DNA from: Candidatus Levyibacteriota bacterium
GTDB taxonomy: Bacteria; Patescibacteriota; Microgenomatia; Levybacterales; UBA12049
Length of the DNA stretch: 64,000 nucleotides
Reading direction: 5' to 3'
NCBI GenBank assembly: GCA_003173895.1
Contig: PJMG01000012.1
Coordinates: 35,448-99,447 of the forward strand
How positions within the stretch are numbered: the first letter of the stretch is position 1; every line of letters begins with the position of its first letter. Made by a program: the position numbers and the translations under genes. Below are positions 4,024 through 51,379 of this stretch, piece by piece. The notes under the pieces were generated by a model, which worked only from the letters and a program-made list of their open reading frames with translations, searched no databases and was not told the DNA's origin.

Positions 4024-4091
4024 TGTCATCCTGAACTTGTTTCAGGATCTTAAAATTATTAAGAAGATTCTGAAATAAATTCAGCATGACA
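4024..4091. repeat. Palindromic dispersed repeat (TGTCAT...ATGACA family) in divergent intergenic region
   Basis: TGTCATCCTGAAC-ttgtt-TCAGGATC ... GAAGATTCTGAA-ataaa-TTCAGCATGACA. Two hairpins bounded by TGTCAT/ATGACA inverted termini. Related copies at 25784-25849, 45384-45451, 51312-51379 and fragments elsewhere. Confidence 0.6.
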
Positions 4092-4129
4092 CTGTTGATT
4101 GTATCTTAATCAAGAATTATACTCAAGTT

Positions 4130-5173
4130 ATGACCTCTCTGGAAAGAACTGTCGAAATTACTAAAAAAGTTTTAATAGGATTTTTAATTGGGTTAGGTTG
4201 TATTATTTTTATAGTTATTTTAGTTAATATTATTAGCAGTATTAGAAAAGCTTTTTTCCCTCCTACTCCTGCTGGTCCAAGTGTAGCTTTTGGAAAACTG
4301 GATCAAATACCTTTTGATGACAATGGTGAAAAAGGAAATTTCACTTATTCGCTTCAAACGGTAAGTGGAACTTTACCTACTCTATCTGATAGAGAAGAAG
4401 TTTTTAAAATTAATAATGCGGCACCAAGTTTATTAAATTTATCAAATGCTAAATCTATAGTCGCTGCGGGAAATTTTACTAGCGATCCTACTGCTATTTC
4501 TGATACTAATTATGAATGGACTAATTCTACACCAAGTTCCACTTTAGTCATGAATATAATAAATAATAATTTTACTTACTCTTATGATTATAATTCTGAT
4601 CCAAATGTACTACAGGGAATTAATCTAACAGACACTATTGGTGCTATAAATACAGCCACTACGTTTTTTAATACTTATATTTCTACTTTACCCAGTGATA
4701 TCAATGTAGATAATCCCAACACTTCTTTTTTTAGTATTAATAATGGTAATTTTACCTCTGTTCCTAGTCTTTCTCAGGCACAGGCTATCCGAGTAGATTT
4801 TTTCCCAAACAATGTAAATAAATTATCTATTTATTATCCCACTTTCCCTAATTCGCTTATGTATGCTTATGTGGGTGGAGGAGCAGATAATTCTCAAGTT
4901 ATAAAAGCCAGTTATTTCCACGTTAATATTAGTAATCAAAATTCTACTTATCCCATTATTAGCTCTCAAGATGCTTTTAATGATTTAAAAAATGGAAATG
5001 CATATATTTTACCTAGTTATACTGGCAGTAAAAATGTAAATATTAGAAATGTTTCCGTGGTTTATTTCATAGCTAATGATAATCAGAATTACCTCATGCC
5101 AGTTATAGTTTTCCAAGGAGACAATAATTTTTACGCAGTAGTCAGCGCAGTTAAGGGTGAATGGATAAAATAA
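4130..5173 (+). CDS. Membrane-anchored extracytoplasmic protein of unknown function (N/S/T-rich)
   Basis: N-terminal TM anchor (LIGFLIGLGCIIFIVILVNII) followed by a 300-aa Asn/Thr/Ser-rich ectodomain; no catalytic motif recognised. Confidence 0.5.
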   Translation: MTSLERTVEITKKVLIGFLIGLGCIIFIVILVNIISSIRKAFFPPTPAGPSVAFGKLDQIPFDDNGEKGNFTYSLQTVSGTLPTLSDREEVFKINNAAPSLLNLSNAKSIVAAGNFTSDPTAISDTNYEWTNSTPSSTLVMNIINNNFTYSYDYNSDPNVLQGINLTDTIGAINTATTFFNTYISTLPSDINVDNPNTSFFSINNGNFTSVPSLSQAQAIRVDFFPNNVNKLSIYYPTFPNSLMYAYVGGGADNSQVIKASYFHVNISNQNSTYPIISSQDAFNDLKNGNAYILPSYTGSKNVNIRNVSVVYFIANDNQNYLMPVIVFQGDNNFYAVVSAVKGEWIK

Positions 5174-5182
5174 ATACCTTTA

Positions 5183-5677
5183 TTATTTTCTATTTCCCAT
5201 AGGTGTAGGAGATTCATGTTCACGTAAAAGTCTTTGCTGCTCTCTACAAAAATCAACATGAGATTGATATTGACTATTATTGCTGGGGGAATATGCTTCT
5301 CTCATAGCTAATTGATCATAGATATTAGCTACTTCTCCTAAAGTCTTATCTAAAAGATAACGTTTTTCTTCTTCTTTCCAATTAGCAAGATATGGATGAA
5401 ATTCACTTATCATTTTAGAAACAATTACTAAAGCCTCAACTCTAGTCATAGGAGTCGTATAAAGACCTGTTGTAGGAAGATTATCTAAAAAATTATAAAC
5501 CCGTTCTTGAGATGTAGAGGAAGTTAGTCTAGATACGCCTATCATAGCTCTTGCAACACGTGATTCATATTCTTCTTGATCAATTTTAAAAAAATTTGAA
5601 TATTGAGTTTCACAGGCCTGTGCAATGGGAAGGAAATCATGTCCAAATCTTTTTTCTATTTCTGAAGCGTCTGGCAT
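5183..5677 (-). CDS. Hypothetical protein (164 aa)
   Basis: ORF with balanced composition; no known motif. Confidence 0.4.
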   Translation of the reverse strand: MPDASEIEKRFGHDFLPIAQACETQYSNFFKIDQEEYESRVARAMIGVSRLTSSTSQERVYNFLDNLPTTGLYTTPMTRVEALVIVSKMISEFHPYLANWKEEEKRYLLDKTLGEVANIYDQLAMREAYSPSNNSQYQSHVDFCREQQRLLREHESPTPMGNRK

Positions 5678-5726
5678 ATTTTAAAAATTAGCAAATATTT
5701 ATTTTAAAAGCAATAGCTTATTAATT

Positions 5727-6665
5727 TTATAAATTTACTGGTACGTAGTTTACATCTTCCACTACATTATCTATTAATAATTTCGTATCTGCGAAGCGAT
5801 CCTGACTTCCCATAACTATAATAATTATAGTATGCCCATCTTTATTAATAGCTGTTACTAAAACTTGGCCTGCATCTTCTGTGTAACCTGTTTTTATTCC
5901 AAAAACTCCTTTATATCCTAACAGTTCATTTAAACTGATTAGATCAAAACTAGCACTCTGATCGACAGTAGAAATAATTTTTTCTTTAGTTGAAACAATT
6001 TGTCTTAAAACTGGATTCTTAATAGCAAAACTAGAAAGTCTGAATAAATCAATCGGCGTAGTATAATCTCCATCATCTAAAAGTCCGACTGGATCAGAAT
6101 AATGTGTATTATAAAGATGAAGTGCTGAGGCTTTCATATTCATAGCGTTTATAAAAGCCTTTTGGCCTCCAGGATAATTATCAGCGATAGCTATAGCCGC
6201 GTCATTATCTGAAGGTAACATCATAGAATATAAAAGACTTTCAAAAGTTAACTGCTGATTAGGTAAAAATCCAGCGACTACAGGTGGAATATCAGATGAT
6301 TTAATAGTTAAAATTTGATTTAATTTAAAATAATTTAGACCAATAAGTGCGGTCATAATTTTAGTAGTAGATGCTGGTGAAAAATGAAGATTAACATTTT
6401 TACTAGCGATTATTTTTTTAGAATCAGCATCTGCGATGATAAAACTTTGCGCTGAAATATCAGGAATTTGTGAATTTTCAAGTTTGGGATAATAAACTAT
6501 TGTAGGTAAATTCACATTTAATTTTTGGGTCGAAGATTCTTTATAGATTATAAATAGTGTAATGTTAACGGCAACTAGAATAAAAAAAACTACCACTGAA
6601 ATAATAGCTAGTGGGAAATAAAAATTATTTTTCTGCTTTTGGATTAAGTTGAGAAAGTCTTTCAT
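5727..6665 (-). CDS. dacA: Serine-type D-Ala-D-Ala carboxypeptidase (peptidase S11, PBP5-like)
   Basis: N-terminal TM/signal segment. SxxK active site (PASTTKIMTAL), SxN motif (LPSDNDAA) and KTG motif (GIKTGYT) in canonical order. The ORF-track start overlaps the upstream gene by 41 nt; the true start may be downstream. Confidence 0.75.
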   Translation of the reverse strand: MKDFLNLIQKQKNNFYFPLAIISVVVFFILVAVNITLFIIYKESSTQKLNVNLPTIVYYPKLENSQIPDISAQSFIIADADSKKIIASKNVNLHFSPASTTKIMTALIGLNYFKLNQILTIKSSDIPPVVAGFLPNQQLTFESLLYSMMLPSDNDAAIAIADNYPGGQKAFINAMNMKASALHLYNTHYSDPVGLLDDGDYTTPIDLFRLSSFAIKNPVLRQIVSTKEKIISTVDQSASFDLISLNELLGYKGVFGIKTGYTEDAGQVLVTAINKDGHTIIIIVMGSQDRFADTKLLIDNVVEDVNYVPVNL

Positions 6666-8013
6666 CGATTCGTTCCATATCTCGAGGGAAAAGTACTGCT
6701 TTACGAATATTATCTAATTCTAAAATTTTCATGGTTAAACGTTCTAGTCCAAATGAGAATCCTCCTTCAGGTGGCATACCATATTTAAAAGCCATTAAAT
6801 ACATACCAAAGTTTTTAGGATTAACATTTCTTTGTTTCATAACTTCTAAAAGTTTTTCGTAATCATTAATTCTTTTACTCCCACTTAAAATTTCAGCACC
6901 TCTAAAGAGTAAGTCATAACTTAAACTGTACTCTGGATTTTCTGGATCCGGATAAGTATAAAAAGCTCTTTTTTTAGTAGGATAGTGAGTAATAGTTACG
7001 AAATCAGATTTATGTTCTTCGCGAGCCCAAGCACAAATTTCTTTTTCATCTTCAGGATTTAAATCCATTTCTTTACTTAAATCACGCCCAGTCCTTTTAG
7101 TTATTATTTCCTGAGCTTCTCTAAGTTTAAGTCGAGGAATAGAGTTTGGAATAAGTGGCATTTCTATATTTAATTTTTCAAAAATATTTTTATGTTTTTC
7201 TGTAACATTTTTTACGATAGATGATCCTACAAATTCAACTGCATCTAAAAGTTCTTCAAATTTTTCTACGAATGCTATTTCTACATCCATCATAGTCACT
7301 TCTGATAAGTGACGAGTGGTCACTGAAGGCTCTGCACGATAAGCTTTACTAATAGTAAAAACCCGCTCTAAAATTCCCACCATCATCTGCTTATATAGCT
7401 GTGGACTTTGAATCATATAGGCATGATGCCCATAATAATTAACCGAGAATACATCTGCGCCTCCTTCACTAGCTCCAGCTGCTATAGTCGGGACAAAAAT
7501 TTCTGTGGCATCTAATTTTTCAGCAGCATTTCTAAACTCTTCAGCTATAGATGCCTGTATTTTAAAAATATCTCTTTGGGTTTCGTGTTTTAATGTTAAA
7601 GACCTAAAATCAAGTAGAGTAGGCAATTCTAATTTTAAATCAATTCCTCCCATATCAAATGGAAGTGTTTCAGATTTACCAATAACTTCTATATCTTCTA
7701 TTTCTAATTCTACTTTTCCAGTAATAAGTTTAGGATTAACTGCATTTTCTGGTCGAGCATGTACGATCCCTTTTATATAAACCGCTTCTTCAGGTTTTAT
7801 ATTTTTAGCTTTTTCGAAGTTGTCATTTTTAGAGAAAATTACAGTTTGTATTAAAGCACTTCTATCTTCTATATCAAAAAATACTATTTTTCCGTGTTCT
7901 CTTTTAAGTCTTACCCACCCTTTTATCTCTACTTCCTGATCAATTTTTTCAACAGTATCTTTAATTAAAGTTCGCATAAATATAATTTTACCTTTAAAAT
8001 CTCTTCTTGACAA
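6625..8013 (-). CDS. Class IIb aspartyl/asparaginyl-tRNA synthetase (archaeal/compact type; AspRS vs AsnRS not resolved)
   Basis: N-terminal OB-fold anticodon-binding region. Class II motif 2 (FRAEPSVTTRHLSEV) and motif 3 (GGFSFGLERL). QSPQLYKQ signature common to AsnRS/AspRS2. Confidence 0.85.
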   Translation of the reverse strand: MSRRDFKGKIIFMRTLIKDTVEKIDQEVEIKGWVRLKREHGKIVFFDIEDRSALIQTVIFSKNDNFEKAKNIKPEEAVYIKGIVHARPENAVNPKLITGKVELEIEDIEVIGKSETLPFDMGGIDLKLELPTLLDFRSLTLKHETQRDIFKIQASIAEEFRNAAEKLDATEIFVPTIAAGASEGGADVFSVNYYGHHAYMIQSPQLYKQMMVGILERVFTISKAYRAEPSVTTRHLSEVTMMDVEIAFVEKFEELLDAVEFVGSSIVKNVTEKHKNIFEKLNIEMPLIPNSIPRLKLREAQEIITKRTGRDLSKEMDLNPEDEKEICAWAREEHKSDFVTITHYPTKKRAFYTYPDPENPEYSLSYDLLFRGAEILSGSKRINDYEKLLEVMKQRNVNPKNFGMYLMAFKYGMPPEGGFSFGLERLTMKILELDNIRKAVLFPRDMERIDERLSQLNPKAEK

Positions 8014-8096: not shown

Positions 8097-8152
8097 GGGA
8101 GATTTGTATTATTTACATTTTCAATCTCCCCAGATAAAAGGGAGATTTTTTG
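8097..8152 (+). promoter_or_regulatory. Putative attenuator: alternative hairpins (antiterminator A:B vs terminator B:C + U-tract) directly upstream of ORF 8157
   Basis: GGGAGAT (8097-8103) ... ATCTCCC (8124-8130) ... GGGAGAT (8140-8146) followed by TTTTTTGT. The middle segment can pair with either flank. The B:C hairpin plus T-run has intrinsic-terminator geometry on the + strand, yet no + strand gene lies upstream. Confidence 0.4.
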
Positions 8153-8156
8153 TATT

Positions 8157-8481: not shown

Positions 8482-8540
8482 GAGACTGGTTTTTATTTTA
8501 AAATTCCAGTCTCCCAAATAAAAAGGGAGATTTTTTGTAT
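8482..8540 (+). promoter_or_regulatory. Second copy of terminator/antiterminator-like leader element
   Basis: GAGACTGG-(16 nt)-CCAGTCTCCC-aaataaaaa-GGGAGA-TTTTTTGTAT, then ACCCCAGATAAAAAT, which repeats the CCCCAGATAAAAG segment of the first element. Overlapping alternative stems. Upstream of ORF 8663. Confidence 0.35.
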
Positions 8541-8928: not shown

Positions 8929-10581
8929 TTATCGTTTTTTTACATCCTTTATCTTAAGTTGTATGCTTTCTCTTCCATTCCACTCATTTCTATCTATTAC
9001 AAAAACTATATCAATTAAATCCCCTAGTTTAATATTCTGAAACTTATCAACCATATTAAATGCAATCCCATCAATTCTGAATTCTGAATTCTGAATTCTG
9101 AATTTCAATTTCACATGCTTTCTATCTTTTCCAATTAAATTTATTGACTCAATCTTTACATTTTTACTTAAAAATACTGGTTCTGGGTTACTCATTCCAA
9201 AAGGAGAAAGTTTTTGAATTTCATCATAAAAATTTAGATCAACTATAGATAATGGAATTTCCAAATCAATATTTAAAATTCTTTCTAAATGTTCCTCTAA
9301 AATTTCTATTAACGCTAACTCTTCCATTTTTTTCTTTAATACCCCAATTTTTACTGTTTCTATAGTAAAACCAGCAGCCATGGGATGTCCTCCAGCATTT
9401 ACTAAAAACTCAGAATGTTTTCTAATAAATTCAATAATATTAATACCACTTATTGAACGAGCAGAAGCTTTACTAACTCCATCTTTTTTAGAAATTACTA
9501 TTGAGGGTCGATAAAAAGTCTCCACTAATCGTCCTGCTACTAAACCAATAATCCCTTCTTCAAAATCATCTTCGATAATTAAAATATTTTTAATTTTTCC
9601 TCGACTTTTTACTACTTCAATGGCGCGAAGTGTCGAAGCTTGCGTTAATAATTGACGCTCTCTATTAGTTTGACCTAAAGTAAGTGCTAAATTCTGTGCT
9701 CTTTTAATATTTTTAGTACAAAGTAAACGTAAACTATCCATTGCAGATTCCAATCGTCCCATGGCATTAAGACGAGGAGCTATCATATGTCCTACCTCAT
9801 AAATTCCTATTTTTTTAGGGTCAATTCCTGCTTCCTTATATAACATTTGTAAACCTACTCTTTTAGTATCTCTTAAATATTCCAAACCAATTTTTACAAT
9901 CGCTCTATTTGCATCTTTCAGTGGCACTAAGTCAGCGATAGTTCCTAAAGTTACTAAATCTAAAAATTTAGAAGGATCTTCACTTTTTTCTTTACCCTTT
10001 ACGCTTAATACTTTTGTAATTTCTTGCGCAAGCAAATAAGCCACTCCTGCACCACATAGTTTAGTCGTATGAACAGTACTAAAACTTGGAGGCAATTTTT
10101 CACCTCCGCCAGCTGGCGGAGTATGATGATCTGTAATTATTACATCTATTCCATTTTTATTACTAAATTCCACAGCTTCATGTGCCACAATTCCATTATC
10201 AACTGTAATAATTAAACCAATTTTTTCTTTTTCATTTTTATTTATTAAATTTTCTATACCCTTAATCGATAGACCATAACCTTCCTCTACTCTATGAGGA
10301 ATATATGGTTCCACATTCGCACCTAATCCAAATAAAGTTTCCCATAAGATAGCAGTTCCTGTAATTCCATCTACATCATAATCGCCATAAATTATAATTT
10401 TTTCTTTACTTTCAATTGCTTTTTTTATACGTTTTAAACTTTTTTGCAGCTTTTTTTTATCAATCTCAACTGAATCAATTGTTATATCCTCTATTTTGGG
10501 ATTTAAATAATTTTCAATTTCCTTTTTTGTTTTCATTCCTCTATTTTCTAAAAGAATATTTAAAATTTTTCCCATTGTCAT
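8929..10581 (-). CDS. recJ: Single-stranded-DNA-specific exonuclease RecJ
   Basis: DHH motifs (IIIYGDYDVDGITGTAIL; ITDHH) and DHHA1 region (GGHPMAAG). C-terminal OB-like extension. Start chosen at MTMGKIL (10581) rather than ORF-track 10737, to match typical RecJ N-termini and avoid overlap with the divergent NUDIX gene. Confidence 0.85.
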   Translation of the reverse strand: MTMGKILNILLENRGMKTKKEIENYLNPKIEDITIDSVEIDKKKLQKSLKRIKKAIESKEKIIIYGDYDVDGITGTAILWETLFGLGANVEPYIPHRVEEGYGLSIKGIENLINKNEKEKIGLIITVDNGIVAHEAVEFSNKNGIDVIITDHHTPPAGGGEKLPPSFSTVHTTKLCGAGVAYLLAQEITKVLSVKGKEKSEDPSKFLDLVTLGTIADLVPLKDANRAIVKIGLEYLRDTKRVGLQMLYKEAGIDPKKIGIYEVGHMIAPRLNAMGRLESAMDSLRLLCTKNIKRAQNLALTLGQTNRERQLLTQASTLRAIEVVKSRGKIKNILIIEDDFEEGIIGLVAGRLVETFYRPSIVISKKDGVSKASARSISGINIIEFIRKHSEFLVNAGGHPMAAGFTIETVKIGVLKKKMEELALIEILEEHLERILNIDLEIPLSIVDLNFYDEIQKLSPFGMSNPEPVFLSKNVKIESINLIGKDRKHVKLKFRIQNSEFRIDGIAFNMVDKFQNIKLGDLIDIVFVIDRNEWNGRESIQLKIKDVKKR

Positions 10582-10671
10582 CTCAAGCGAAGTCGAGAGA
10601 TCTCGTTCTTTAATCTTTAAATTATTAACTATTTTCCATTTCATATTTGATATAATTTTACCAGAAAATTT

Positions 10672-11145
10672 ATGAAAAGAGGGATTGATTACATAGGCGT
10701 AGGAGTAGGTGCTGCTATTTTTAATAATAAAGGACAATTATTAATTATGCTCCGTGGTAAAAAAGCTAAGAACGAAAGAGGCACATGGGAAATTCCTGGT
10801 GGCTCTGTAGAGTTTAATGAAACATTTGAACAAGCTCTAAAAAGAGAAGTAAAAGAAGAAATAGGAGTAGAAATAGAAATAATAGAACTTTTAGGAATTT
10901 GTGATCATATTATTCCTTCAGAAAAACAACACTGGGTAGCCCCTACATTTATTTGTAAAATTATAAAAGGTAAACCAAAAATAAAAGAAAAAGATAAATG
11001 CGAAAAGCTAGATTGGTTCACCTTAGAAGAAGCAGAAAAATTACCACTATCAATAATCACTAAATGGGATATAGAACAACTTAAAAAGAAATATATTTCC
11101 TTTTTCTCATCAATAAGTAAATCGAAAATACACCAAAAGGAATAA
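10672..11145 (+). CDS. NUDIX hydrolase
   Basis: Nudix box GGSVEFNETFEQALKREVKEEIGVEIE (G-x5-E-x7-REuxEExGu). Confidence 0.75.
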   Translation: MKRGIDYIGVGVGAAIFNNKGQLLIMLRGKKAKNERGTWEIPGGSVEFNETFEQALKREVKEEIGVEIEIIELLGICDHIIPSEKQHWVAPTFICKIIKGKPKIKEKDKCEKLDWFTLEEAEKLPLSIITKWDIEQLKKKYISFFSSISKSKIHQKE

Positions 11146-24077: not shown

Positions 24078-25787
24078 TTATTTTTTACCTTGATAGTGTT
24101 CTAATTTATAGATTTCTATAAAGCTAACATTCTTTTTATCTACTATTTCTGCTTGACCAAAACCTGCTATTTCAAAAAGTGGATTACCTAAAGGATAGCA
24201 TGGAATACTCTCACAAATGACTATTAATTGATTAGTAACTGAAGTTCTTTGAGGATCTAAATAGGGAGGTTGTATAGTTACCGGAGGATGTCCCCAAATA
24301 GTTAAGAAATAACGATAGGCAAAATCAGAATTTCCACCTGTAATTAGAGCTAAATTAAAGGGTTTATTATCTACTTCATTTAAAACTACTTTAGATATTA
24401 ATCTCGCTTGATTAACTTGTTCATTAGGAAGAATTCTTATAGGACTATAATAAATACTAGTAAATATTATCGCTCCTAAAATTAAAATTCCACCAATTTT
24501 ACTTGATATATTTATTACTTGATAGAGCTTGTTATTCTGAGCGTTAGCGAAGAATCTCGTCCTTTTCCAATTATTTTTCCATAAAAATCCTATAAAATTA
24601 CTAATTACTAAAATTACTACAGGATATAAAAATTCAAAATAATAATCATAAATATTTTTTTTATAAAATCCAAAAATTAAGAGTGGTGGAATTAACCAGG
24701 CAAAGATTAAAAAATATTTTAGAAACTTATTTTTATTTGTCATTCTGAGCGTTAGCGAAGAATCTCGTCCCTTTTGTTTTAATAAGCTAACAAATTCAAT
24801 TAAAAAGTAGATTAAACTTCCTAAGGACACGATGGAAATTAAAATAGCAAAAATATCTAGCTTACCAAATGTTGAAACTGCTGTATTGGAAGGTGGGTAA
24901 TAGAATAAAGTTTTCCCAAAAACAGTTATAAATACATCCCAAGTTTTCATCAGGATATTCCCACTTCCTCCTACGTCAGGAGAATGAAAAATAAAATTAA
25001 TAATATTTAATGTGTTTACGAATTTATGTCTTACTTCAAATGCTAAATAAGGAGAAAACCCTATTAAAAATCCTAAAATGAAAAAGAAAAAAATCTTAAT
25101 GTCATCCTGAACTTGTTTCAGGATTTTCTTCATCATCCTAGCTGGTCCAGAATTAATGCTAAAAATAAACTCTGCTCCAATAACATATAAAATTATCGAC
25201 ACTCCTAAAAATGTTTCTATGTAGTGAAGTTGAAGTAAAATTCCATAGCAGATACCGGATAAAATAACCCATTTATTTTTCCCCTCAAACAAACTTCTAT
25301 ATAAAAACCATAAACATAATATGGTAAAAAATGGCATAGGATTTGGATTCCATGAAGATTTAGAATAAATTACTACGAGTGGTGAAATAGCATAAATAAA
25401 TGCTGCTATAAATCCTGTAGTTTTATTAAAAATATTTTTACCAAGATAATAAACTAGATAAACAGTTATTATTCCAAGTAATGCAATCATTACAGCTGGC
25501 CCCACAGGATTATAATTAAATAACCATAAAAATGGTGCCATGAAGTAGTAATAAATAGGACCTAAGAAAAAACCGCCAACAGAACTGGTTGGTCCCAGTA
25601 AAGTTAGATGTCCATGTAAAATATTATAAACAGTTAAGACATCTCTTCCTTCATCTCCTAAAAAAGTCATGTAATCACCAATCCTATAAAATCTTAGGAA
25701 TGCAGCTAACAGTAAAATTAAAAATAAAAGAAAATTTGTTTTAGTAAGATATTTTTTTAAAGCACTTATCATAATATCTAATGCCAT
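24078..25787 (-). CDS. GT-C fold glycosyltransferase, PMT_2 / ArnT-like (GT39/GT83 family)
   Basis: About 12 TM helices. DE motif in first extracytoplasmic loop (TFLGDEGRD). 569 aa. Contains three in-frame copies of dispersed-repeat fragments (24531-24568, 24739-24781, 25101-25124). Confidence 0.75.
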   Translation of the reverse strand: MALDIMISALKKYLTKTNFLLFLILLLAAFLRFYRIGDYMTFLGDEGRDVLTVYNILHGHLTLLGPTSSVGGFFLGPIYYYFMAPFLWLFNYNPVGPAVMIALLGIITVYLVYYLGKNIFNKTTGFIAAFIYAISPLVVIYSKSSWNPNPMPFFTILCLWFLYRSLFEGKNKWVILSGICYGILLQLHYIETFLGVSIILYVIGAEFIFSINSGPARMMKKILKQVQDDIKIFFFFILGFLIGFSPYLAFEVRHKFVNTLNIINFIFHSPDVGGSGNILMKTWDVFITVFGKTLFYYPPSNTAVSTFGKLDIFAILISIVSLGSLIYFLIEFVSLLKQKGRDSSLTLRMTNKNKFLKYFLIFAWLIPPLLIFGFYKKNIYDYYFEFLYPVVILVISNFIGFLWKNNWKRTRFFANAQNNKLYQVINISSKIGGILILGAIIFTSIYYSPIRILPNEQVNQARLISKVVLNEVDNKPFNLALITGGNSDFAYRYFLTIWGHPPVTIQPPYLDPQRTSVTNQLIVICESIPCYPLGNPLFEIAGFGQAEIVDKKNVSFIEIYKLEHYQGKK

Positions 25788-25849
25788 CCTGAACTTATTT
25801 CAGGATCTTCTTAATTCAGAGAGGATGCTGAAATAAATTCAGCATGACA
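25784..25849. repeat. Palindromic dispersed repeat (TGTCAT...ATGACA family)
   Basis: CATCCTGAAC-ttatt-TCAGGATC ... GGATGCTGAA-ataaa-TTCAGCATGACA. Near-identical architecture to 4024-4091. Confidence 0.6.
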
Positions 25850-35404: not shown

Positions 35405-36286
35405 TTATATATTATAATTTAATTGCCTTTTTATTTCTTCCAATCCTTCTCTAAATGTCTTTAAATTTACGCCCAATTTTTTTATTTTATTGTTATTAAG
35501 CGATGAGTTATATGGTTCTTTTGGCTTATCAATTAAAAATTCTGCTCGTGTTGTAGAAGCTATTAAACTTTTATCCAATCCGGAAACGTTGGCTATTTCT
35601 AAAGCCGCATCATAAATACTTAGTGAAGTATCACCCACTACATGATAAATACCGTTAGCGCTATTTTCGATCAAGATATCAACTGCTGTTGCTATGTCAT
35701 CTATAAAAGTAGGAGTAATAATTCTATCTTTTAAAACTGTTAATTGTTCTTTATTTTTAAGTTTTTGTATAAATAGCCTGACAAAATCATTTTTCTCATA
35801 ATTAGCTCTGTATGGATAAGCTACGCGAGTAATAGTCCATAGAGTTTTTATATTTTTTACTCTTAATTCTCCTTCATATTTAGTCTGAGCATACCAGTTA
35901 AGTGGATTTTCGCGATCTCTCTCTGTATAACCTCCCTCGGGCGTATTTTCTCCATCGAAAACTAAATCTGTAGAAAAATAAATAAGCGGAATATTATTCT
36001 CTTCACAAACTTGAGCCACATTTTCTGTCCCTAAAACATTTATTTTCCACGCTTCACTTTTTTCACCCAAGTTTCTATCCAATTCTGCCTGTTTTACATT
36101 AGTATATGCTGCTAAATGTAAAACAAAATCTGGTCTTAAATCCTGAAGAGATTTTTGAACACTTTCTTTACTCGTTATATCTACGCCTGTACTTCTACTA
36201 ATATTTTCAAAAGTATATTTATCTTTAAGAAGTTCTAAAATTCTGGAACCAATTAATCCATTTAAACCAGTAGCTAAAATTTTCAT
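35405..36286 (-). CDS. rfbD: dTDP-4-dehydrorhamnose reductase
   Basis: N-terminal Rossmann GLNGLIGS; Y-x3-K (YAQTKYEGE). 293 aa. 4-nt overlap with rfbB. Confidence 0.8.
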   Translation of the reverse strand: MKILATGLNGLIGSRILELLKDKYTFENISRSTGVDITSKESVQKSLQDLRPDFVLHLAAYTNVKQAELDRNLGEKSEAWKINVLGTENVAQVCEENNIPLIYFSTDLVFDGENTPEGGYTERDRENPLNWYAQTKYEGELRVKNIKTLWTITRVAYPYRANYEKNDFVRLFIQKLKNKEQLTVLKDRIITPTFIDDIATAVDILIENSANGIYHVVGDTSLSIYDAALEIANVSGLDKSLIASTTRAEFLIDKPKEPYNSSLNNNKIKKLGVNLKTFREGLEEIKRQLNYNI

Positions 36287-37375: not shown

Positions 37376-38011
37376 ATGGATCAAACAAATAATTACGAAT
37401 TAGTTATTAAACCCACAGACCCAGATTTTCCCAAAATGATCGAAACTACAGATATTCCAGGATTACTAATTTACCAACGTGAAACTTTCGAAGATAACCG
37501 GGGATTTTTTAGAGAAGCCGTAGAACTACGTGATCTGGAAAAAGTTTTAGGTAAAAAAATAACTGTAACTCAGTGGAATCATTCTTTATCACATTCTAAA
37601 GTTATACGAGGATTTCATGCAGAACCATGGGAAAAAATTATTTATGTGTTAAGAGGTGAAGTAATGGCTGCTATAGTGGATTTAAGATTGGATTCTCCTA
37701 CTTTTGGAAAAGTAGTTACAGTGACTTTAGGAGAAAATAATAGAAAAACTCTTTATTTACCTAAAGGTATGGGAAATTCTTTTTGCGTAACCAGCTCTAC
37801 AGATGCTGAATATATGTATATGATCACTGATTATTTTGAGGGCAAACCCACACCTGCAGTTGCATGGAATGATCCTGTTTTAACCAAACAGTTTGGTGGT
37901 TGGCCTGTAGAAAATCCTATCGTTAGTGAAAAAGATATGAATTATCCTACACTTAAGGAAAAATTTGGTGATCAAGTAGACTTCTCTAAATTTCCCTGGC
38001 TAAATAGTTAA
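37376..38011 (+). CDS. rfbC: dTDP-4-dehydrorhamnose 3,5-epimerase
   Basis: Cupin fold motifs (QRETFEDNRGFFRE ... SKVIRGFHAE ... MYMITDYF). Confidence 0.85.
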   Translation: MDQTNNYELVIKPTDPDFPKMIETTDIPGLLIYQRETFEDNRGFFREAVELRDLEKVLGKKITVTQWNHSLSHSKVIRGFHAEPWEKIIYVLRGEVMAAIVDLRLDSPTFGKVVTVTLGENNRKTLYLPKGMGNSFCVTSSTDAEYMYMITDYFEGKPTPAVAWNDPVLTKQFGGWPVENPIVSEKDMNYPTLKEKFGDQVDFSKFPWLNS

Positions 38012-38019
38012 ATTTCAAT

Positions 38020-38044
38020 GTCATCCTGAACTCGATTCAGAATC
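38020..38044. terminator. Hairpin (TGTCAT repeat-family fragment) between convergent rfbC and kinase genes
   Basis: GTCATCCTGAActcgaTTCAGAATC followed by TTTTAATATT; possible bidirectional terminator. Confidence 0.4.
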
Positions 38045-38052
38045 TTTTAATA

Positions 38053-38562
38053 TTAACTTTTATTTAAAATATTTACTATTTGCTTCACAGTTTTTTCAGG
38101 CGTTTTATCAGTGTTGTCTATTTTATATTCGTTTGTAAAATGTAAATCATCTCTTAATTTTTTATTAAATTTAATAGATTCTTCAAAATCTCTGAATCCA
38201 CTATCTCTAGTTTCTGTCAAAACTCTTTTTTTAAGTTTATCGTCGTCAGTAAGATAAAAAGTAAAAACTATATTTCTATAATCTTTTAACTCTTCTAGAA
38301 TTCTCTCAATATTCTTTTCTGTAAACCCACCAACAATTACATTTTTATAATTATGTTTTGCATAATTTCTTAATAAGAATACAAGGTTTTCAATAGACAT
38401 TTTTTCTTCTATATCATTAGTATTTGTCCAAGTGTTATTTAAGTGAAACCCTCTAATCCAATCAAAATCAATATGAACAGAATTAAGTTTTTCTTTAAGA
38501 AGTCGAGCAAGTGTAGTTTTTCCTGCTCCTTGTGCACCTAAAATGAAAATAAAATTATACAT
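38053..38562 (-). CDS. P-loop NTPase / small nucleotide-or-sugar kinase-like protein
   Basis: Walker A GAQGAGKTT at residues 9-17. 169 aa. No lid/signature allowing specific assignment. Confidence 0.5.
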   Translation of the reverse strand: MYNFIFILGAQGAGKTTLARLLKEKLNSVHIDFDWIRGFHLNNTWTNTNDIEEKMSIENLVFLLRNYAKHNYKNVIVGGFTEKNIERILEELKDYRNIVFTFYLTDDDKLKKRVLTETRDSGFRDFEESIKFNKKLRDDLHFTNEYKIDNTDKTPEKTVKQIVNILNKS

Positions 38563-41889: not shown

Positions 41890-41930
41890 ATTTATTAATC
41901 AAATCCTATAGATATTTATCTTTTTAATAA

Positions 41931-42095
41931 AAAGTGAGCAAATATATATTTTAAAATGCATTGAAAGTTTGCTCTATGATAATTTTTAAATTTAATTTAA
42001 GTTTGGTAGCAAACTTTCACGAGCAAGAATGATATTTAATATTAATTTACAAAGCAATGTTTTCGAGCGTCTTTTAAAATATATTTTGCGAACTC
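41931..42095. repeat. Long (~165 bp) imperfect-palindrome dispersed repeat, copy 1 (upstream of tsaB)
   Basis: agtgagcaaatatatattttaaaatGCATTGAAAGTTTGCTctatgataattt...aagtttggtAGCAAACTTTCacgagcaagaatgatatt...gcgtcttttaaaatatattttgcgaactc. Internal GAAAGTTTGCT/AGCAAACTTTC and terminal tatattttaaaa/ttttaaaatata inverted segments. Confidence 0.6.
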
Positions 42096-42131
42096 AAAAC
42101 AAAATCAATCTTATTACAAACCTCTGCTAAC

Positions 42132-42740: not shown

Positions 42741-42800
42741 GTTTAATCAAAAGCGAGCAGAAGTATATTTTAAAACGCATTGAAAGTTTGCTCTATGATA
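42741..42800. repeat. Partial copy (left half) of the ~165 bp repeat, upstream of tsaC / overlapping tsaE 3' end
   Basis: aaagcgagcagaagtatattttaaaacGCATTGAAAGTTTGCTctatgataatttc, near-identical to the left arm of the copies at 41931 and 50763. Confidence 0.45.
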
Positions 42801-43300
42801 ATTTCTCTTTTATTCTCATCTAAAATCTCAAATTTTATTTCCCATCTTTTCTCAGGTAAAAATTTACCTAACTTTTCCGGCCATTCAATGGCTACAATAT
42901 TATTCTTTTCTTTTAAAATATCTAATAATCCTGTAGATTCTAAATCATTTTCATTTTCTAAACGATATAAATCCGCATGATAAAAATTACTAAATTCTTC
43001 AATCTTAACCTTATTTACATTTTTCACTTTTAACTTTTCACTTTTAACTTTATAGCTTCTTACTATTATAAATGTTGGGGAGATAATTCTGTGCTTTATA
43101 CCTAAACCTTTAGCTAACCCTTTAACAAATTGCGTTTTACCTGCTCCTAAATTACCATATAAACAAATGACATCTCCTATTTCTAATTTTTTTGCAAAGT
43201 CAAATCCTAACTTCTCAGTTTCTTCACTACTATTAGTTACCAAAATTTTTTTAAATTTATTTTCCCTTTTTTCCATAACTGAAATCCTAATATACCACAT
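42770..43300 (-). CDS. tsaE: tRNA t6A biosynthesis ATPase TsaE
   Basis: Walker A GNLGAGKTQFVKG; SPTFIIV; YHADLYRL motif. Contains a K/V-rich ~20-aa insertion encoded by a 14-nt tandem duplication. The annotated start overlaps the upstream gene by 64 nt; the true start may be a downstream non-ATG codon. Confidence 0.7.
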   Translation of the reverse strand: MWYIRISVMEKRENKFKKILVTNSSEETEKLGFDFAKKLEIGDVICLYGNLGAGKTQFVKGLAKGLGIKHRIISPTFIIVRSYKVKSEKLKVKNVNKVKIEEFSNFYHADLYRLENENDLESTGLLDILKEKNNIVAIEWPEKLGKFLPEKRWEIKFEILDENKREIIIEQTFNAF

Positions 43301-44156: not shown

Positions 44157-45365
44157 TTATAATATTTGCACTCGATCTACTTCTACGATAGGCTCTGTGG
44201 GATATGTACCTCTGAAAGAAATATCATGTCCATTTGGAGTAAAAGGATCATTCATTTGATAGTTACCATTAGATCCACTTATTAAAACTACGAAATGATC
44301 TGCTATTGGTCCACCATCATAACTAATACCTACGATTACTGGATCACCACCTGATAAAACACTATCTATAGAAGCATTAGCTCGTTGAGCACTTACGCCC
44401 CCTGCAGAAATGGTAAATAAAAGATAAGCTGTAGAAGAGAAAAAGTTTGAGGAGTTAGAATTTATATCCAAAGGTGTAACTTTATGTCCATAATGGGTTA
44501 TTACCATAGCCATACTAGTCATCAAGCACCCATAACTAGCTATAGACGAATCTGTTCCATTAATTCCTATACCTCCCCACTGTGAATCTCTTTGATTATA
44601 ATAACAGCCCCACCCATCACAAACTGTTTGATTAGACAGAAGACTAGCTCCTCCCTGAGCAGCTACGAAATTTCCAAAACCAGCCAATTGTGCTTTAGCT
44701 TGGTTCAGTAAATGTTGATAATTTTCTTCACTATTTTGAGTTTCTGTAAGTAAAGTCTGTTTTTGAGTTTTTTGTGTATTTAATTGATCAGTATATTGTT
44801 GAAGCTGAGCTTGTAAAGATACCACTTGCTGTTTTTTAGTTTCTAGAATTTGTTTTTGGTTAGTGTAATCATCTTTAGCCTGCACTGTAGCGAATGCTAC
44901 TTGTCTATCATTAGCTTCTACTATTTGTAAATAATTCTCGCGATTCACAAAATCGCTTATATTATTAGATGCTAAAATAGATTGAATAGGCGGTTGTGTA
45001 CCTACTTCATAACTTTTTCTAATTCTATTATAGAAAATCTTACTTAAAGTCTGAAAAGCATTATTCAAACTTCCTATTTTTTGAGTTGTACTATCTATAT
45101 CTTCTTCAAGAGAAATAATTTGTGCTTGAGTCGCATCTATTCTAGCTTGGGTTAATTCAATTTGCCCATTCATTACGGCTATTTGATTAGAAAGTGTATT
45201 AGCTTGCCCTTTCAAATCCGTAAGTTTACTTTGGAGAGAATTTATAAGATTTTGACAGTCAGCTTGAGAAGAACACGAAACATCGTCAGCTAAAGTTTTA
45301 TTGGCTGATAAATTAAATACGATAAATAAAGCTAAAACAATGGTAAAAATCTTCAGAAATTTCAT
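44157..45365 (-). CDS. Secreted coiled-coil protein with C-terminal papain-like (peptidase C39_2/CHAP-like) domain; PcsB/EnvC-like FtsEX partner candidate
   Basis: Signal peptide and ~230-aa coiled-coil rich in Q/L heptads. C-terminal domain has a Cys motif (SYGCLMTSMAMVITHYG) and His motif (ADHFVVLISG). Located directly downstream of ftsE-ftsX. Confidence 0.55.
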   Translation of the reverse strand: MKFLKIFTIVLALFIVFNLSANKTLADDVSCSSQADCQNLINSLQSKLTDLKGQANTLSNQIAVMNGQIELTQARIDATQAQIISLEEDIDSTTQKIGSLNNAFQTLSKIFYNRIRKSYEVGTQPPIQSILASNNISDFVNRENYLQIVEANDRQVAFATVQAKDDYTNQKQILETKKQQVVSLQAQLQQYTDQLNTQKTQKQTLLTETQNSEENYQHLLNQAKAQLAGFGNFVAAQGGASLLSNQTVCDGWGCYYNQRDSQWGGIGINGTDSSIASYGCLMTSMAMVITHYGHKVTPLDINSNSSNFFSSTAYLLFTISAGGVSAQRANASIDSVLSGGDPVIVGISYDGGPIADHFVVLISGSNGNYQMNDPFTPNGHDISFRGTYPTEPIVEVDRVQIL

Positions 45366-45383: not shown

Positions 45384-45451
45384 TGTCATCCTGAGCAACG
45401 CGAAGGATCTCATTCTATAGATAGAGATTCTTCACTTCGTTCAGAATGACA
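45384..45451. repeat. Palindromic dispersed repeat (TGTCATCCTGAGC...GTTCAGAATGACA)
   Basis: 68-bp element with perfect 13-bp terminal inverted repeats and central cgaaggatctcattctatagatagagattcttcac palindrome. Inverted-orientation twin at 51312-51379. Confidence 0.6.
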
Positions 45452-47929: not shown

Positions 47930-48238
47930 ATGTTTGTGATAAAAGATGTTTTAATCACTTTGATCTCTGTATTAGGTGGTTATAAATTTAGCGACTATAT
48001 TATCGGTAAAAAAGCTAAAAAATTACATTTTTTGGGTTATAAGATTTCTAAAAAACATCATGTTCATCACAGTATGTATGGATTAGTTCCCTTCTTTATC
48101 GCTCCTTTTACTCTGGCTAATATTACACTCACTATTACTATAGTAGGATTTGGTATAGGAATTATAATAGAACACACAGTACATGAAGGATTTGTTTTTA
48201 TAAATAAAGTAGAAAAGGAATTAAGTAATATTGATTAA
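47930..48238 (+). CDS. Small membrane protein (102 aa)
   Basis: Three hydrophobic segments; no motif. Confidence 0.3.
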   Translation: MFVIKDVLITLISVLGGYKFSDYIIGKKAKKLHFLGYKISKKHHVHHSMYGLVPFFIAPFTLANITLTITIVGFGIGIIIEHTVHEGFVFINKVEKELSNID

Positions 48239-48924
48239 TTTAGTATTTCAATAATCTCAGGATCCCATGTAAGTGAAGCATTAGTTAGTTGATCACATTC
48301 AATATCATATTCTCCGTGTCTATTCTCAATATTAGTTGGAAATGGATCTAAAACATGAAACATATTATCTTTGTATCCTGTTACTAAAACAAAGTGTCCT
48401 TCAAGTCCTCCTTTAATATCATCTACTATTCTTTCTTTTCCTACCATTTTTAGTCTATGACCCCATGCCCAATCTTCATCAATGCAAAGAATTACTAAAG
48501 ATTTTTTATCTAACATGTCTTTAATAGTTTGGGATGAATATGATTTCTGTTCTAGATCTCCACCGTCTTCAAGATAATCTAAAATATATGTAACTTCCTT
48601 ACGCCAGAGATTCTTTGGATGAAAATTAAGCCATTCCTTAATATTTTCAATTAATTTATCTTTTGGTAAATCTCGCCAAGCGTAGGATAATACCTTGCTA
48701 GTTGAAGTAACTAGTTTTGTTTTTATTCCGTTCTTATGTACATGTGAAACAAGTTGAGCTGCATAGGTTGGTTTACCTCTTTTAGGATGCCCAAAGTCTT
48801 TTAGAACATCTCCTAACTTTATATCTTTACCTTTCATGGAATATACCATAGCTACACAACATGGGCCACACGTATATGAGTTTGATGCTTGAAATATATG
48901 AATATTTTTATATTTACTATCCAT
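48235..48924 (-). CDS. Cytoplasmic papain-like cysteine peptidase, C39-like (peptidase_C39_2-type)
   Basis: Q-x9-C nucleophile context (IFQASNSYTCGPCCVAMV), His motif (EGHFVLVTGY), downstream Asp (VLDPF). No signal peptide. Confidence 0.5.
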   Translation of the reverse strand: MDSKYKNIHIFQASNSYTCGPCCVAMVYSMKGKDIKLGDVLKDFGHPKRGKPTYAAQLVSHVHKNGIKTKLVTSTSKVLSYAWRDLPKDKLIENIKEWLNFHPKNLWRKEVTYILDYLEDGGDLEQKSYSSQTIKDMLDKKSLVILCIDEDWAWGHRLKMVGKERIVDDIKGGLEGHFVLVTGYKDNMFHVLDPFPTNIENRHGEYDIECDQLTNASLTWDPEIIEILN

Positions 48925-48928
48925 AAAC

Positions 48929-49687
48929 TTATTTTAACATTTTCCTTATTTCTTTTAAATTATTTTCAAGTATTTTAAATTTTTCATTTTTATCAATAGT
49001 TTCAAACTTGAAAATTTCAAATGCTATTGTTCCATTCCAATTTAACTTTTTAATTAGTTTCAATAATTTTTTGATTGGTAAATTCCCTGTAAATAAAGGT
49101 AGATGTTGATTTCCATTTTTATAGTCACTTAAGTGAATTAATTTTATTCTCTTATGATACTGATTAAAAAAATCAATAATATTTATATCAAACGTTCCTA
49201 AATGTGATGTATCCATGGTCATATTTAAATCATTCTTAATACAAAAATTAGCAAAGGCTTCAGGATTAGTCCCTTCTTTATTTACTAAAGAGGCCATGTT
49301 AGTAGTTCCACTTTCAAATGAAATAATTACATTATTTTTTTCACCCCATTTATTAATTTTTTCAATCAAATTTAATCCATTTAAAAATATAGGTTTTCTA
49401 AAATTAAATAAATGAAAATTTAGGACTGGATTTTTAGTATTTGTTAGCTCTAATGCTTTTTTAAGAGTTTTTCTGAGAAAAAAATCACTTTCAAAAAAAA
49501 ACATTAAACGGGGTTCATGTAAACAAACTACAAATTTTTTTTGTTCTTCGGTTAATTTAGTATTTTTATAAAAATCTGAAAGACCCATGTCATAGTCTAA
49601 TCCATCAAAACTAGCTTTTTTCGCGAAATTATAAATTTCATTAAACGAAGAATCTTTAAGAGTGGTAGATAGAGTAATTTTTAGCAT
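48929..49687 (-). CDS. Xylose isomerase-like TIM-barrel (sugar phosphate isomerase/epimerase) family protein
   Basis: Weak: IKLIHLSDYKNGNQHLPLFTGNLP ... GTIAFEIF resembles the H-L-x-D ... E metal-site segments of AP endonuclease 2/xylose isomerase-like folds. Confidence 0.4.
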   Translation of the reverse strand: MLKITLSTTLKDSSFNEIYNFAKKASFDGLDYDMGLSDFYKNTKLTEEQKKFVVCLHEPRLMFFFESDFFLRKTLKKALELTNTKNPVLNFHLFNFRKPIFLNGLNLIEKINKWGEKNNVIISFESGTTNMASLVNKEGTNPEAFANFCIKNDLNMTMDTSHLGTFDINIIDFFNQYHKRIKLIHLSDYKNGNQHLPLFTGNLPIKKLLKLIKKLNWNGTIAFEIFKFETIDKNEKFKILENNLKEIRKMLK

Positions 49688-49688
49688 C

Positions 49689-50696
49689 TTAAGTCAATAA
49701 GCGTAGTTCTTCTTCTATAAATTTATCCAAATTTCCATTTAAAACACCTGCAGTATCAGAAGTTTCATACTGCGTCCTTAAATCTTTAACCATGTGATAT
49801 GGGTGTAAAACATACGAGCGAATTTGATTTCCCCATCCAGGCGTTTTATATCCACCTTTTAGTGCTGCTTCAGCTTTTTTACGTTCTTCTTCCTGAATTA
49901 ACCAAAGTTTAGCTTTAAGCATACGTAGAGCATATTCACGATTCTGAAGCTGAGATCTTTCTGTTTGGCAAGTTATGACAATTCCTGTAGGTTTATGTTT
50001 TAAACGAACTGCAGAAGAAACTTTATTTACATTTTGTCCTCCGTGTCCACCTGCTCTAAAAAATTCCCATTCTAAATCTTCATCTTTTACTTCTACATCA
50101 CTATCATTTTCTATTTCTGGAAGGACTTCTACTAAAGCAAATGAAGTCTGACGTAAATTATCCGCGTTAAACGGAGATTGGCGAACCAGTCTATGAGTTC
50201 CTGCTTCAAACTTTAAAAATCCATAAGCATAAGATCCTGTTATTTCTATAGTTATACTTTTAAATCCTGCTTCATCACCTGGTGTTTGATCTATAATTTC
50301 ATATTTCCAACCTTTTTTTTCTATAAATCTGGTATACATACGAAATAAAATTTCACACCAATCCATAGCTTCAGTTCCACCCTGGCCCGAATGAATAGAT
50401 AAAATAGCATTACTCTGATCATGAGCTCCAGAGAAATACAAAAACATTTCCAGTTTTTCTACTATTTTTTCAGCTTCTTCTAAATTATTTTCTTCAAGAT
50501 ACAGCTGAAGCATTTCTATTTCCTCTACTTCTTTTTGCAAATCAGAAAGTTGCTTCATCTTTTCAGATGCGCTTTTATGATCTTGCCAGAAAACAGGATT
50601 TTCACTCTCTTTTTGAAGAGATGTAATTTTTTCTTTTTTAGAATTTATATCCAGTTTTTCTATTATTTTTTCAGCTCGGGCTTTTAATTCATCCAT
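49689..50696 (-). CDS. prfB: Peptide chain release factor 2
   Basis: GGQ motif ([17 protein letters not shown]) and SPF tripeptide (RQSPFNADN), which is RF2-specific. ORF is continuous with no programmed +1 frameshift site. Confidence 0.85.
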
Positions 50697-50762
50697 GTAC
50701 CTATTTTCTCACAGAAAAACTTAAATTCCAAATTCTACAGAATAAATTGATTATTAATTACT

Positions 50763-50928
50763 AAAAGAGAGCAGATGTGTATTTTAAACAGCATTGAAAG
50801 TTTGCTTTATAATAATTTGAAATCTAATTTAACTTTGGTAGCGAACTTTCAAGAGCGAGAATGATATTGAATATTAATTCACAAAGCAATGTTTTCTAGC
50901 GTCTTTTAAAATATACTCTGCGAGCTAT
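50763..50928. repeat. Long imperfect-palindrome dispersed repeat, copy 3 (upstream of prfB)
   Basis: aaagagagcagatgtgtattttaaacaGCATTGAAAGTTTGCTttataataattt...AGCGAACTTTCaagagcgagaatgatatt...gcgtcttttaaaatatactctgcgagctat; ~90% identical to copy 1. Confidence 0.6.
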
Positions 50929-50965
50929 AGTAAAAGAGGTTATAAAAGTCCATTTGTTTCAAAAT

Positions 50966-51310
50966 TTATAATTTATCGCAGATTTGAAGGCAGGCGTTTT
51001 TAGCATTATTTAAAGGTGTTTGCGGTAACTGTTGAAGCTCCTGAATAATCTGTCTTACTTGAGGTGAACTGCTAGCTAATTGATTTAAATTAATATTTTT
51101 TGCCTGATCTTGAATAGAGTTAATAGTTCCAGCTACCGCAGAATTTGTAGATGAATTATTAGTAGAAATTTCTATTCCCTTTACCTCTTTTTGTAAAACT
51201 AATGGAACAACAGTCTGCTTTTTATTAAAATAACCATTTTTGTATAAATAAAATCCTCCAACTCCTATTCCAATTAAAAATAAAAAAAGAAAAAATTTCA
51301 TATTATCCAT
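50966..51310 (-). CDS. Small secreted/membrane-anchored protein (114 aa)
   Basis: N-terminal hydrophobic segment; Q/N/S-rich; no motif. Confidence 0.3.
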   Translation of the reverse strand: MDNMKFFLFLFLIGIGVGGFYLYKNGYFNKKQTVVPLVLQKEVKGIEISTNNSSTNSAVAGTINSIQDQAKNINLNQLASSSPQVRQIIQELQQLPQTPLNNAKNACLQICDKL

Positions 51311-51311
51311 C

Positions 51312-51379
51312 TGTCATTCTGAACATAGTGAAGAATCTCTATCTATAGAATTAGATCCTTCACGTTGCTCAGTATGACA
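51312..51379. repeat. Palindromic dispersed repeat (inverse-orientation twin of 45384-45451)
   Basis: TGTCATTCTGAACatagtgaagaatctctatctatagaattagatccttcacGTTGCTCAGTATGACA is approximately the reverse complement of the 45384 copy. Confidence 0.6.

Follow-up and report, generated by a model that had tools for sequence, protein, structure and literature searches.

Tagged hairpin repeats in a Candidatus Levyibacteriota genome and their probable kinship with Ssn-type nuclease motifs

Hairpin units and their sites in the window

The subject of this study is a short palindromic repeat in a 64-kb stretch of the genome of a Candidatus Levyibacteriota bacterium, a member of the candidate phyla radiation (CPR, or Patescibacteria). 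The stretch, hereafter the window, comprises positions 35,448 to 99,447 of contig PJMG01000012.1 (assembly GCA_003173895.1) and has a G+C content of about 30%. An earlier note made from the sequence had described here a family resembling miniature inverted-repeat transposable elements (MITEs), with TGTCAT...ATGACA termini, in four full copies and five fragments. Our analysis finds the repeat at all nine of the named places and reveals that its basic form is a tagged hairpin unit of 28 nt, of which the window holds 14 copies (Table 1). The supposed fragments, at 24530, 24738, 25100, 38019 and 58180, are complete units in themselves, and each full copy consists of two inverted units. Thus, eight of the 14 units make up four 68-bp inverted pairs, in all of which the tags point outward, and the other six stand singly. 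One of these single units, at 10576-10604, was missing from the original list, and the second pair, given there as starting at 25784, actually starts at 25782 with TGCCAT. A recount gives 10 sites in 64 kb, or about one per 6.4 kb, in place of the one per 7 kb estimated before. Gene names were taken from a Pfam annotation of all open reading frames (ORFs) of at least 70 aa in the window, which confirms that gltX, a gene of glycosyltransferase family 39 (GT39, Pfam PMT_2), ftsX and the BacA/UppP gene flank copies of the repeat, as had been proposed. Four units are not intergenic but lie in frame inside coding sequence: those at 24530, 24738 and 25100 in the GT39 gene and that at 58180 in a conserved ORF.

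The units are clearly more numerous than expected by chance. A search with TGTCATYCTGARC allowing up to two mismatches gives 14 matches in the window, compared with 3.5 +/- 1.7 in shuffled sequences, and none of 100 shuffles reaches 14. A profile search recovers exactly 13 units with E values from 4e-6 to 3e-9, the next match having E = 0.36; the fourteenth unit, outside these 13, is the one at 10576-10604, in which both sides of the outer stem have changed together (ATCTC/GAGAT) and remain complementary. Read 5' to 3', the unit of about 28 nt consists of an unpaired tag, (T/C)GTC, a stem that opens with A-T, a short loop, the returning arm ending in AT, and a C-rich tail, CTC. In the window the tag is TGTC in 12 units, TGCC in one and TGTT in one, and the longer flank TGTCAT is found in 12 of the 14. 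A C directly follows the palindrome in 12 of 14 units, the exceptions being the intragenic units at 25100 and 58180, which have T instead. All 14 units have a 3-nt tail, and 12 of these tails begin with C (CTC, CTT, CTA or CCT).

Two stem types can be distinguished. The A-type, which accounts for six of the 14 units, reads ATCCTGAA-CTTGT-TTCAGGAT and has an 8-bp stem around the loop CTTGT; in canonical copies, such as 4024+ and 25100+, the stem is fully Watson-Crick, and some other copies have mismatches in their arms. The B-type reads ATYCT-GA-RC-loop-GY-GA-AGRAT, in which the two G.A mismatches separate an outer stem of 5 bp from an inner stem of 2 bp and the loop has 3-4 nt. Its core can be likened to the very stable DNA mini-hairpin GCGNAGC (PMC13037366). 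Single units show weak to moderate folding, the A-type unit at 25100 reaching -6.2 kcal/mol (z -4.1). As the earlier note had suggested of its full copies, each of the four pairs folds, giving a long DNA hairpin with an energy between -10 and -14.8 kcal/mol and z from -2.3 to -5.3, and the pair at 4024..4091 has both the lowest energy, -14.8 kcal/mol, and z -5.3. The pairs at 45384 and 51312 are indeed reverse complements of each other, 91% over 76 nt, while the spacers between units are not alike from pair to pair. TGTCAT and ATGACA are not the termini of one 68-bp element, as first proposed; they are the orientation tags of two independent units arranged tags-out, the dimers termed HH by Di Nocera (PMC3733652).

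The repeat does not correspond to a structured RNA family in Rfam. The sole gathering-level match in the window is a tRNA at 1119-1189, and the pair at 45384 resembles nothing beyond miRNA hairpin models, so weakly and so far under threshold that we take these matches as chance. We also considered a hammerhead-like or K-turn reading of the CUGA...GA motif and rejected it, since it lacks a complete hammerhead core and fits no model in Rfam. Searched for literally in the literature, the unit sequence returns nothing but unrelated primers.

Table 1. Positions, orientation and gene context of the tagged hairpin units in the 64-kb window
Site	Element	Units, strand	Context
4024..4091	pair, two A-type units	4024-4051 +, 4064-4091 -	between the divergent starts of gltX (2625-4013, -) and ORF 4130-5173 (+)
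10576..10604	single unit, TGTCATCTCAAGCGAAGTCGAGAGATCTC	+	abuts or overlaps the likely start of recJ (ATG 10581 or 10575, - strand); NUDIX gene diverges at 10672
24530..24558	single B-type, tag TGTT	+	in GT39 gene; in frame on - strand as RFFANAQNNK; insertion relative to most homologues
24738..24766	single B-type	+	in GT39 gene; in frame as RDSSLTLRMTN; insertion of ~13 codons
25100..25127	single A-type	+	in GT39 gene; read as ILKQVQDDI; T replaces the C after the palindrome
25782..25849	pair, A-type	25782-25809 + (tag TGCC), 25822-25849 -	fills the spacer from GT2/GtrA stop (25854) to GT39 start (25772 or 25787)
38019..38046	single A-type	+	between convergent rmlC-like gene (37376-38011, +) and AAA_18 kinase-like gene (38053-38562, -)
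45384..45451	pair, B-type	45384-45411 +, 45424-45451 -	between ftsX stop (45480) and the start of ORF 44157-45365, both on - strand
51312..51379	pair, B-type	51312-51339 +, 51352-51379 -	3 nt from uppP stop (51383), 1 nt from the called start of ORF 50966-51310
58180..58207	single B-type	+	in conserved ORF 57403-58329 (+), read as VCHSEQGEEF; T replaces the C after the palindrome

In all six single units of the window (10576, 24530, 24738, 25100, 38019 and 58180) the tagged strand is the plus strand, which has negative GC skew here. Single units in other genome loci show no strand bias (p = 0.09 and 0.58); a skew bias is seen in viral loci, where the units are not independent of each other.

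Spread of the family and evidence for insertion

The stem of the unit shows compensatory change. For 75 distinct units from loci that had been picked through the small nuclease protein described below, and not through the repeat, 89.9% of the cells are paired, compared with at most 49% when the partners are slid. Double-sided changes are seen in 63 cells against 16 in shuffles, with none of 500 shuffles reaching 63, and they affect five of the seven stem pairs. At the inner R-Y position, G-C occurs 83 times and A-T 24 times, with two mismatches.

The family is found well beyond this genome. We scanned a viral collection and species-representative genomes with a pattern in which nothing but the tag and the outer stem is fixed; the matches listed include at least 120 loci of each kind, and 240 loci were analysed together. 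Among the matches listed, the inner bases, although left free by the pattern, are almost always GAGC-GNA-GCGAAG, GAAC-GNA-GTGAAG or GAAC-TTG-TTTCAG, and the host contigs of the viral matches range from 31 to 71% G+C. The genome hosts listed, other CPR groups among them, are Gracilibacteria, Saccharibacteria, Komeilibacteria, Melainabacteria, Nitrospirota, Bacteroidota, Acidobacteriota, Chloroflexota, Firmicutes, alpha-, beta-, gamma- and delta-Proteobacteria, Gemmatimonadota, Nitrospinota, Omnitrophota, Planctomycetota, Verrucomicrobiota and Bdellovibrionota. The tag in these other genomes is TGTC or CGTC, and the pairs listed there comprise 15 tags-out, two tags-in and two in tandem. The unit family thus occurs in well over ten phyla and on viral contigs and is not lineage-specific. 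None of the outcomes that the earlier note named as refuting its proposal is seen: copies do occur beyond the window, with conserved termini and without an Rfam match at the repeat.

Clustering of the ORFs near units in the 240 viral and genome loci yields only phage structural genes and no recurrent transposase. On phage-like contigs, units stand beside structural genes, such as those for portal and capsid proteins. Two viral contigs (L093 and L080) carry stem variants within a few kb of each other, namely A-type units together with ATTTC...GAAAT units such as GTCATTTCGAGCAAACGCGAGAAATCT, which recalls the mixture of A- and B-types in the window.

Comparison with homologous loci reveals insertion polymorphism. 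In an alignment of GT39 proteins, the extra segments of the window protein coincide with the units at 24738 (KGRDSSLTLRMTN) and 24530 (KRTRFFANAQNNK), and most homologues, including the closest (66% identical), are without them; the DNA of this closest relative has no unit. By its GT39 homologues the window belongs to Patescibacteria, near Microgenomates and Levybacteria. The GT2-GT39 gene pair is kept in two relatives, whose upstream proteins are 72% and 76% identical to that of the window. The spacer between the two genes is 45 nt in one relative and 4 nt in the other, with no unit in either, whereas in the window it consists of CTCT, the 68-bp pair and TTAGATATT. This junction is a filled site here against two empty sites in the relatives. 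Since the units at 24530 and 24738 and the pair at 25782 are all missing at the same positions in relatives, insertion is indicated. The earlier suggestion of a non-autonomous element is plausible in this respect.

Small GIY-YIG nuclease genes beside the units

One Gracilibacteria contig recovered by the pattern scan carries a gene for a 100-aa protein of the GIY-YIG nuclease family (Pfam E = 3e-16), and a B-type unit is present on each side of this gene. This protein has at least 8000 relatives, of 92-110 aa and 58-68% identical across phyla. A regular expression for GIY-YIG genes had found one locus, and a profile search of the 240 pattern-selected loci found three more, so that four such genes are known from this sample, in Gracilibacteria, Saccharibacteria, Cyclobacteriaceae and one other locus. 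In all four a unit lies within about 64 nt of the gene, and in one of them it is an A-type unit. The spacing of the conserved Tyr, Tyr and Glu was checked in this clade, and the nearest solved structures are UPF0213 proteins. An NCBIfam search with the protein gives no match.

For a sample chosen independently of the repeat, we fetched 80 metagenome loci encoding the ~95-aa GIY-YIG protein by means of an alignment of its relatives, and counted units with perfect stems. The units are strongly enriched around the gene, at 2.04 per kb within 200 nt of it compared with 0.19 per kb farther off, a difference of about tenfold. A unit is present upstream in 38 of the 80 loci, downstream in 41 and on both sides in 30. 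The arrangement could be judged in the 74 loci whose flanks are long enough: in 25 of them the nearest units are no more than 120 nt away, both upstream and downstream. Tags-out is the most frequent arrangement, with 13 loci, and the median span is 362 bp. In seven of these 13 tags-out loci the downstream unit overlaps the end of the ORF and its tag supplies the stop codon. Some of the GIY-YIG ORFs end in RDSSLRSE, which is the translation of the downstream unit. The small gene is also very often found on contigs shorter than 2 kb, as would be expected of a multi-copy or mobile gene that breaks assemblies. The gene associated with the units encodes a ~95-aa single-domain GIY-YIG nuclease, probably of Ssn type, which is the likely partner of the repeat.

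This arrangement closely recalls a system that has been described in Neisseria. Chenal 2025 (Nat Commun 16:2388, PMC11893778) reported that the repeat NTS, CGTCATTCCCGCGMAVGCGGGAATCYRG, flanks the gene ssnA in the layout NTS-ssnA-NTS, and that SsnA is a 94-aa single-domain GIY-YIG nuclease which binds NTS only as single-stranded DNA (ssDNA), does not bind RNA, and cleaves ssDNA only, a few nt upstream of the tag. Cleavage depends on the three bases that precede the palindrome, and binding on the C that follows it. The ssn genes are typically flanked by Ssn-related motifs (SRM), and the system modulates natural transformation (PMC11893778). Our units share with SRM and NTS the ~28-nt hairpin, the 5' flank (C/T)GTCAT, the C after the palindrome and a high copy number, and at loci outside the window units of the family can flank a ~95-aa GIY-YIG gene on both sides; the SRM flank HGTCWY and the post-palindrome C are each present in 12 of the 14 window units. 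They differ in the stem, which is CTGAGC..GCGAAG or CTGAAC..TTCAG here and TCCCGCG..CGCGGGA in NTS, in the two G.A mismatches of the B-type, and in the lack of an ssn gene in the window; the host here is a CPR bacterium.

The units also fit a class of repetitive extragenic palindromic (REP) sequences, in support of the earlier description as REP-like. The CGTC-tagged REP superfamily of Di Nocera 2013 (BMC Genomics 14:522, PMC3733652), to which Neisseria dRS3 and Rickettsia RPE-4 and RPE-6 belong, has a tag that is often TGTC (also CCTC), a stem whose 8-9 bp begin with A-T, 4-5 nt in the loop and a tail of 3 nt. Its dimers are mostly tags-out (HH) and, in family CGTC-2, mostly heterodimers; some copies lie in frame within genes, the repeats have no associated transposase, and no gene for a REP-associated tyrosine transposase (RAYT) is flanked by CGTC-type repeats (PMC3733652). 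The unpaired tag, A-T stem opening, 3-nt tail, HH dimers, intragenic copies and lack of an adjacent transposase are all shared by our units. The A-type has an 8-bp stem and a 5-nt loop, and the B-type has nine stem positions, including the two G.A, and a loop of 3-4 nt. Moreover, the peptide RHSELVSGS of an intragenic Sulfurovum CGTC-2 copy (PMC3733652) back-translates to CGTCATTCTGAACTTGTTTCAGGATCT, which is the A-type consensus. The differences are the tandem G.A and 2-bp inner stem of the B-type, the tail, CTC here compared with the consensus CCA, and the CPR host, CPR being absent from the five phyla covered in that study.

Two other groups of repeats resemble the units in part. The Rickettsia palindromic elements (RPE) are likewise translated as short peptide insertions in conserved proteins, as is clear here at two sites in GT39; RPE-1 measures about 100-150 bp, compared with units of 28 nt here that add about 10-13 residues. 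The REP and REPIN sequences associated with RAYT, such as the bacterial interspersed mosaic elements (BIMEs) of E. coli and the REPINs of Pseudomonas, are also short tagged hairpins in single copies and inverted pairs, lie between genes and are presumably recognised as ssDNA. Their tag is GTAG, their enzyme a Y1 HUH transposase and their sequence species-specific, in contrast to the TGTC tag, the likely GIY-YIG nuclease partner and the near-identical sequence across phyla seen here.

Interpretation, alternatives and minor features of the window

Taken together, these comparisons suggest that the repeat belongs to the CGTC/TGTC-tagged REP superfamily, with the anatomy of an SRM, and that it is part of an Ssn-like nuclease system whose 68-bp pairs are gene-less derivatives; we put the probability of this reading at roughly 70%. 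On this reading what is new is the host, while the system and the kind of element are known. We propose that when the tagged strand becomes single-stranded, during replication or repair or in incoming transforming DNA, the unit would fold. By analogy with the published enzyme, an Ssn-like nuclease would then bind the hairpin together with the tag and the post-palindrome C, and may cut a few nt 5' of the tag. The nuclease gene typically lies between two tags-out units, and the 68-bp pairs of the window show the same layout without the gene; they may have been spread as gene-less derivatives by a nuclease encoded elsewhere or by host repair. Single units could land in frame in tolerant loops of proteins. 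Both the mobilised origin of the pairs and the presence, now or in the past, of a cognate nuclease in this genome are our inferences.

Several observations weigh against this interpretation. Ssn is not known to move DNA, and the mobility of the pairs is deduced from presence and absence only. The 64-kb window has no GIY-YIG gene: Pfam annotation of its ORFs of at least 70 aa finds neither this gene nor a transposase or integrase, and the nuclease profile (tblastn and hmmsearch) gives only a chance match inside the aspS leader. Among the 74 GIY-YIG loci, 30 are without a perfect-stem unit within 120 nt, and the A-type adjoins a GIY-YIG gene in one locus only, although it makes up six of the 14 window units. 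The likeness of the clade to SsnA is drawn from its Pfam GIY-YIG match and its size, which make it a candidate member of cd10448, the conserved-domain family of SsnA. One search of the viral collection for this clade found none, though viral contigs carry units. With regard to mobility, the units at 25100 and 58180 are not clean insertions; both are in variable segments, and homologues have the same length there, for 25100 including the closest GT39 homologue. Finally, the SRM search pattern HGTCWYN(0-2)YYVSBRHN(0-5)WNVSBRGN(0-2)RNCYNB, which was drawn from 29 genomes with G+C-rich stems (PMC11893778), gives no match in the window and misses all 14 units, while the NTS and NTSvar controls match. 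Because the units fall outside this pattern, their class goes uncounted when it is used.

Other explanations account for part of the evidence. The units might be host hairpins acting at the level of RNA, as intercistronic stabilisers, attenuators or terminators under selection without a dedicated nuclease. Three pairs fill co-directional spacers and one single unit lies between convergent genes, the usual position of REP sequences, and the pairs fold well; even so, two sites lie between divergent genes and four units in coding sequence, and an intrinsic-terminator consensus scan of the window flags none of the repeat elements, leaving the terminator function proposed in the earlier note without support. 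Such a role would also leave unexplained both the near-constant tag, stem and tail across many phyla and from 31 to 71% G+C and the excess of units beside GIY-YIG genes. RNA is not a ligand of SsnA (PMC11893778). We consider this explanation unlikely on its own, while noting that it is compatible with an Ssn-like system.

Mobilisation by transposases fares less well. That the units are classical REP or REPIN sequences, moved by a RAYT, an IS200/IS605-like Y1 HUH enzyme recognising the hairpin on ssDNA, would agree with their architecture of hairpin units with a short unpaired tag, both single and in inverted pairs. The tag is (T/C)GTC, however, and not GTAG, and the IS200/IS605 TnpA or RAYT partner that had been suggested is not seen: no Y1_Tnp or other transposase is found among the window ORFs of at least 70 aa, and none recurs near units in the 240 loci. 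No RAYT gene flanked by CGTC-type repeats was reported by Di Nocera 2013 (PMC3733652), and the gene enriched beside the units encodes a GIY-YIG nuclease, so that a RAYT origin appears very improbable. Still less credible to us is a conventional MITE, in which deletion would have reduced a DDE-type insertion sequence to 66-68 bp between the terminal inverted repeats TGTCAT...ATGACA. Size, inverted ends and intergenic position would suit such an element, as would the lack of the pair 25782 in relatives, but no target-site duplication is found at any of the four pairs, each half is also found alone as a complete unit that is itself a hairpin with a co-varying stem, the spacers vary between pairs, and there is no DDE transposase in the window or near units elsewhere.

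If the kinship with the Ssn system holds, CPR bacteria would join the hosts of a hairpin-repeat system that modulates the uptake of transforming DNA in Neisseria, and the published motif definition would miss a large and very widespread class of repeats together with its clade of nucleases. The B-type architecture and the failure of the SRM pattern are, in our view, the points of most note. Going further, we speculate, more in doubt than in confidence, that CTGAGC-GNA-GCGAAG / CTGAAC-TTG-TTTCAG represents a very widespread Ssn-type motif class that forms, with the conserved ~95-aa GIY-YIG nuclease, a selfish cassette about 360 bp long, with the gene set between a unit and an inverted unit, which would spread horizontally and leave 68-bp pairs and in-frame peptides even in tiny CPR genomes. 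If true, the enzyme would be the first GIY-YIG ssDNA nuclease found to mobilise a MITE-like repeat family. The clade is also a candidate source of new site-specific ssDNA cutters.

The units have consequences for annotation as well. Because the reverse of the tag reads ATGACA, they create false start codons, here for GT39 and recJ. The called GT39 start, ATG 25787, is the reverse of a tag (ATGGCA), and ATG 25772 is the likelier start; the called recJ start, TTG 10737, reads through the unit, and ATG 10581 or 10575 is likelier. Units further supply stop codons to nuclease genes, add short peptides such as RDSSLTLRMT to real proteins, and yield many spurious small ORFs in metagenome catalogues. 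The conserved ORF 57403-58329, which holds the unit at 58180, has 47 homologues, and its similarity to those of about 570 aa is confined to their C-terminal half. The N-terminal half of these homologues, with a HAD-like DxDGT motif, is missing here, and the upstream space is occupied by ORF 56558-57418 on the opposite strand.

Two unrelated repeats were also observed in the window. A family of about 170 nt occurs at 41923-42102, 50756-50934 and 52285-52427, with a partial copy at 42742-42804; its copies are 77-90% identical, contain the inverted repeat TTGAAAGTTTGCT / AGCAAACTTTCAA and lie between genes, by tsaB/sua5, prfB and uppP. It has no Rfam match; a structured RNA and a shared regulatory region are both possible readings. 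In addition, a 44-nt direct repeat, 82% identical between 8112-8155 and 8497-8540, reads TCTCCC...GGGAGA followed by a T run and has a terminator-like look.

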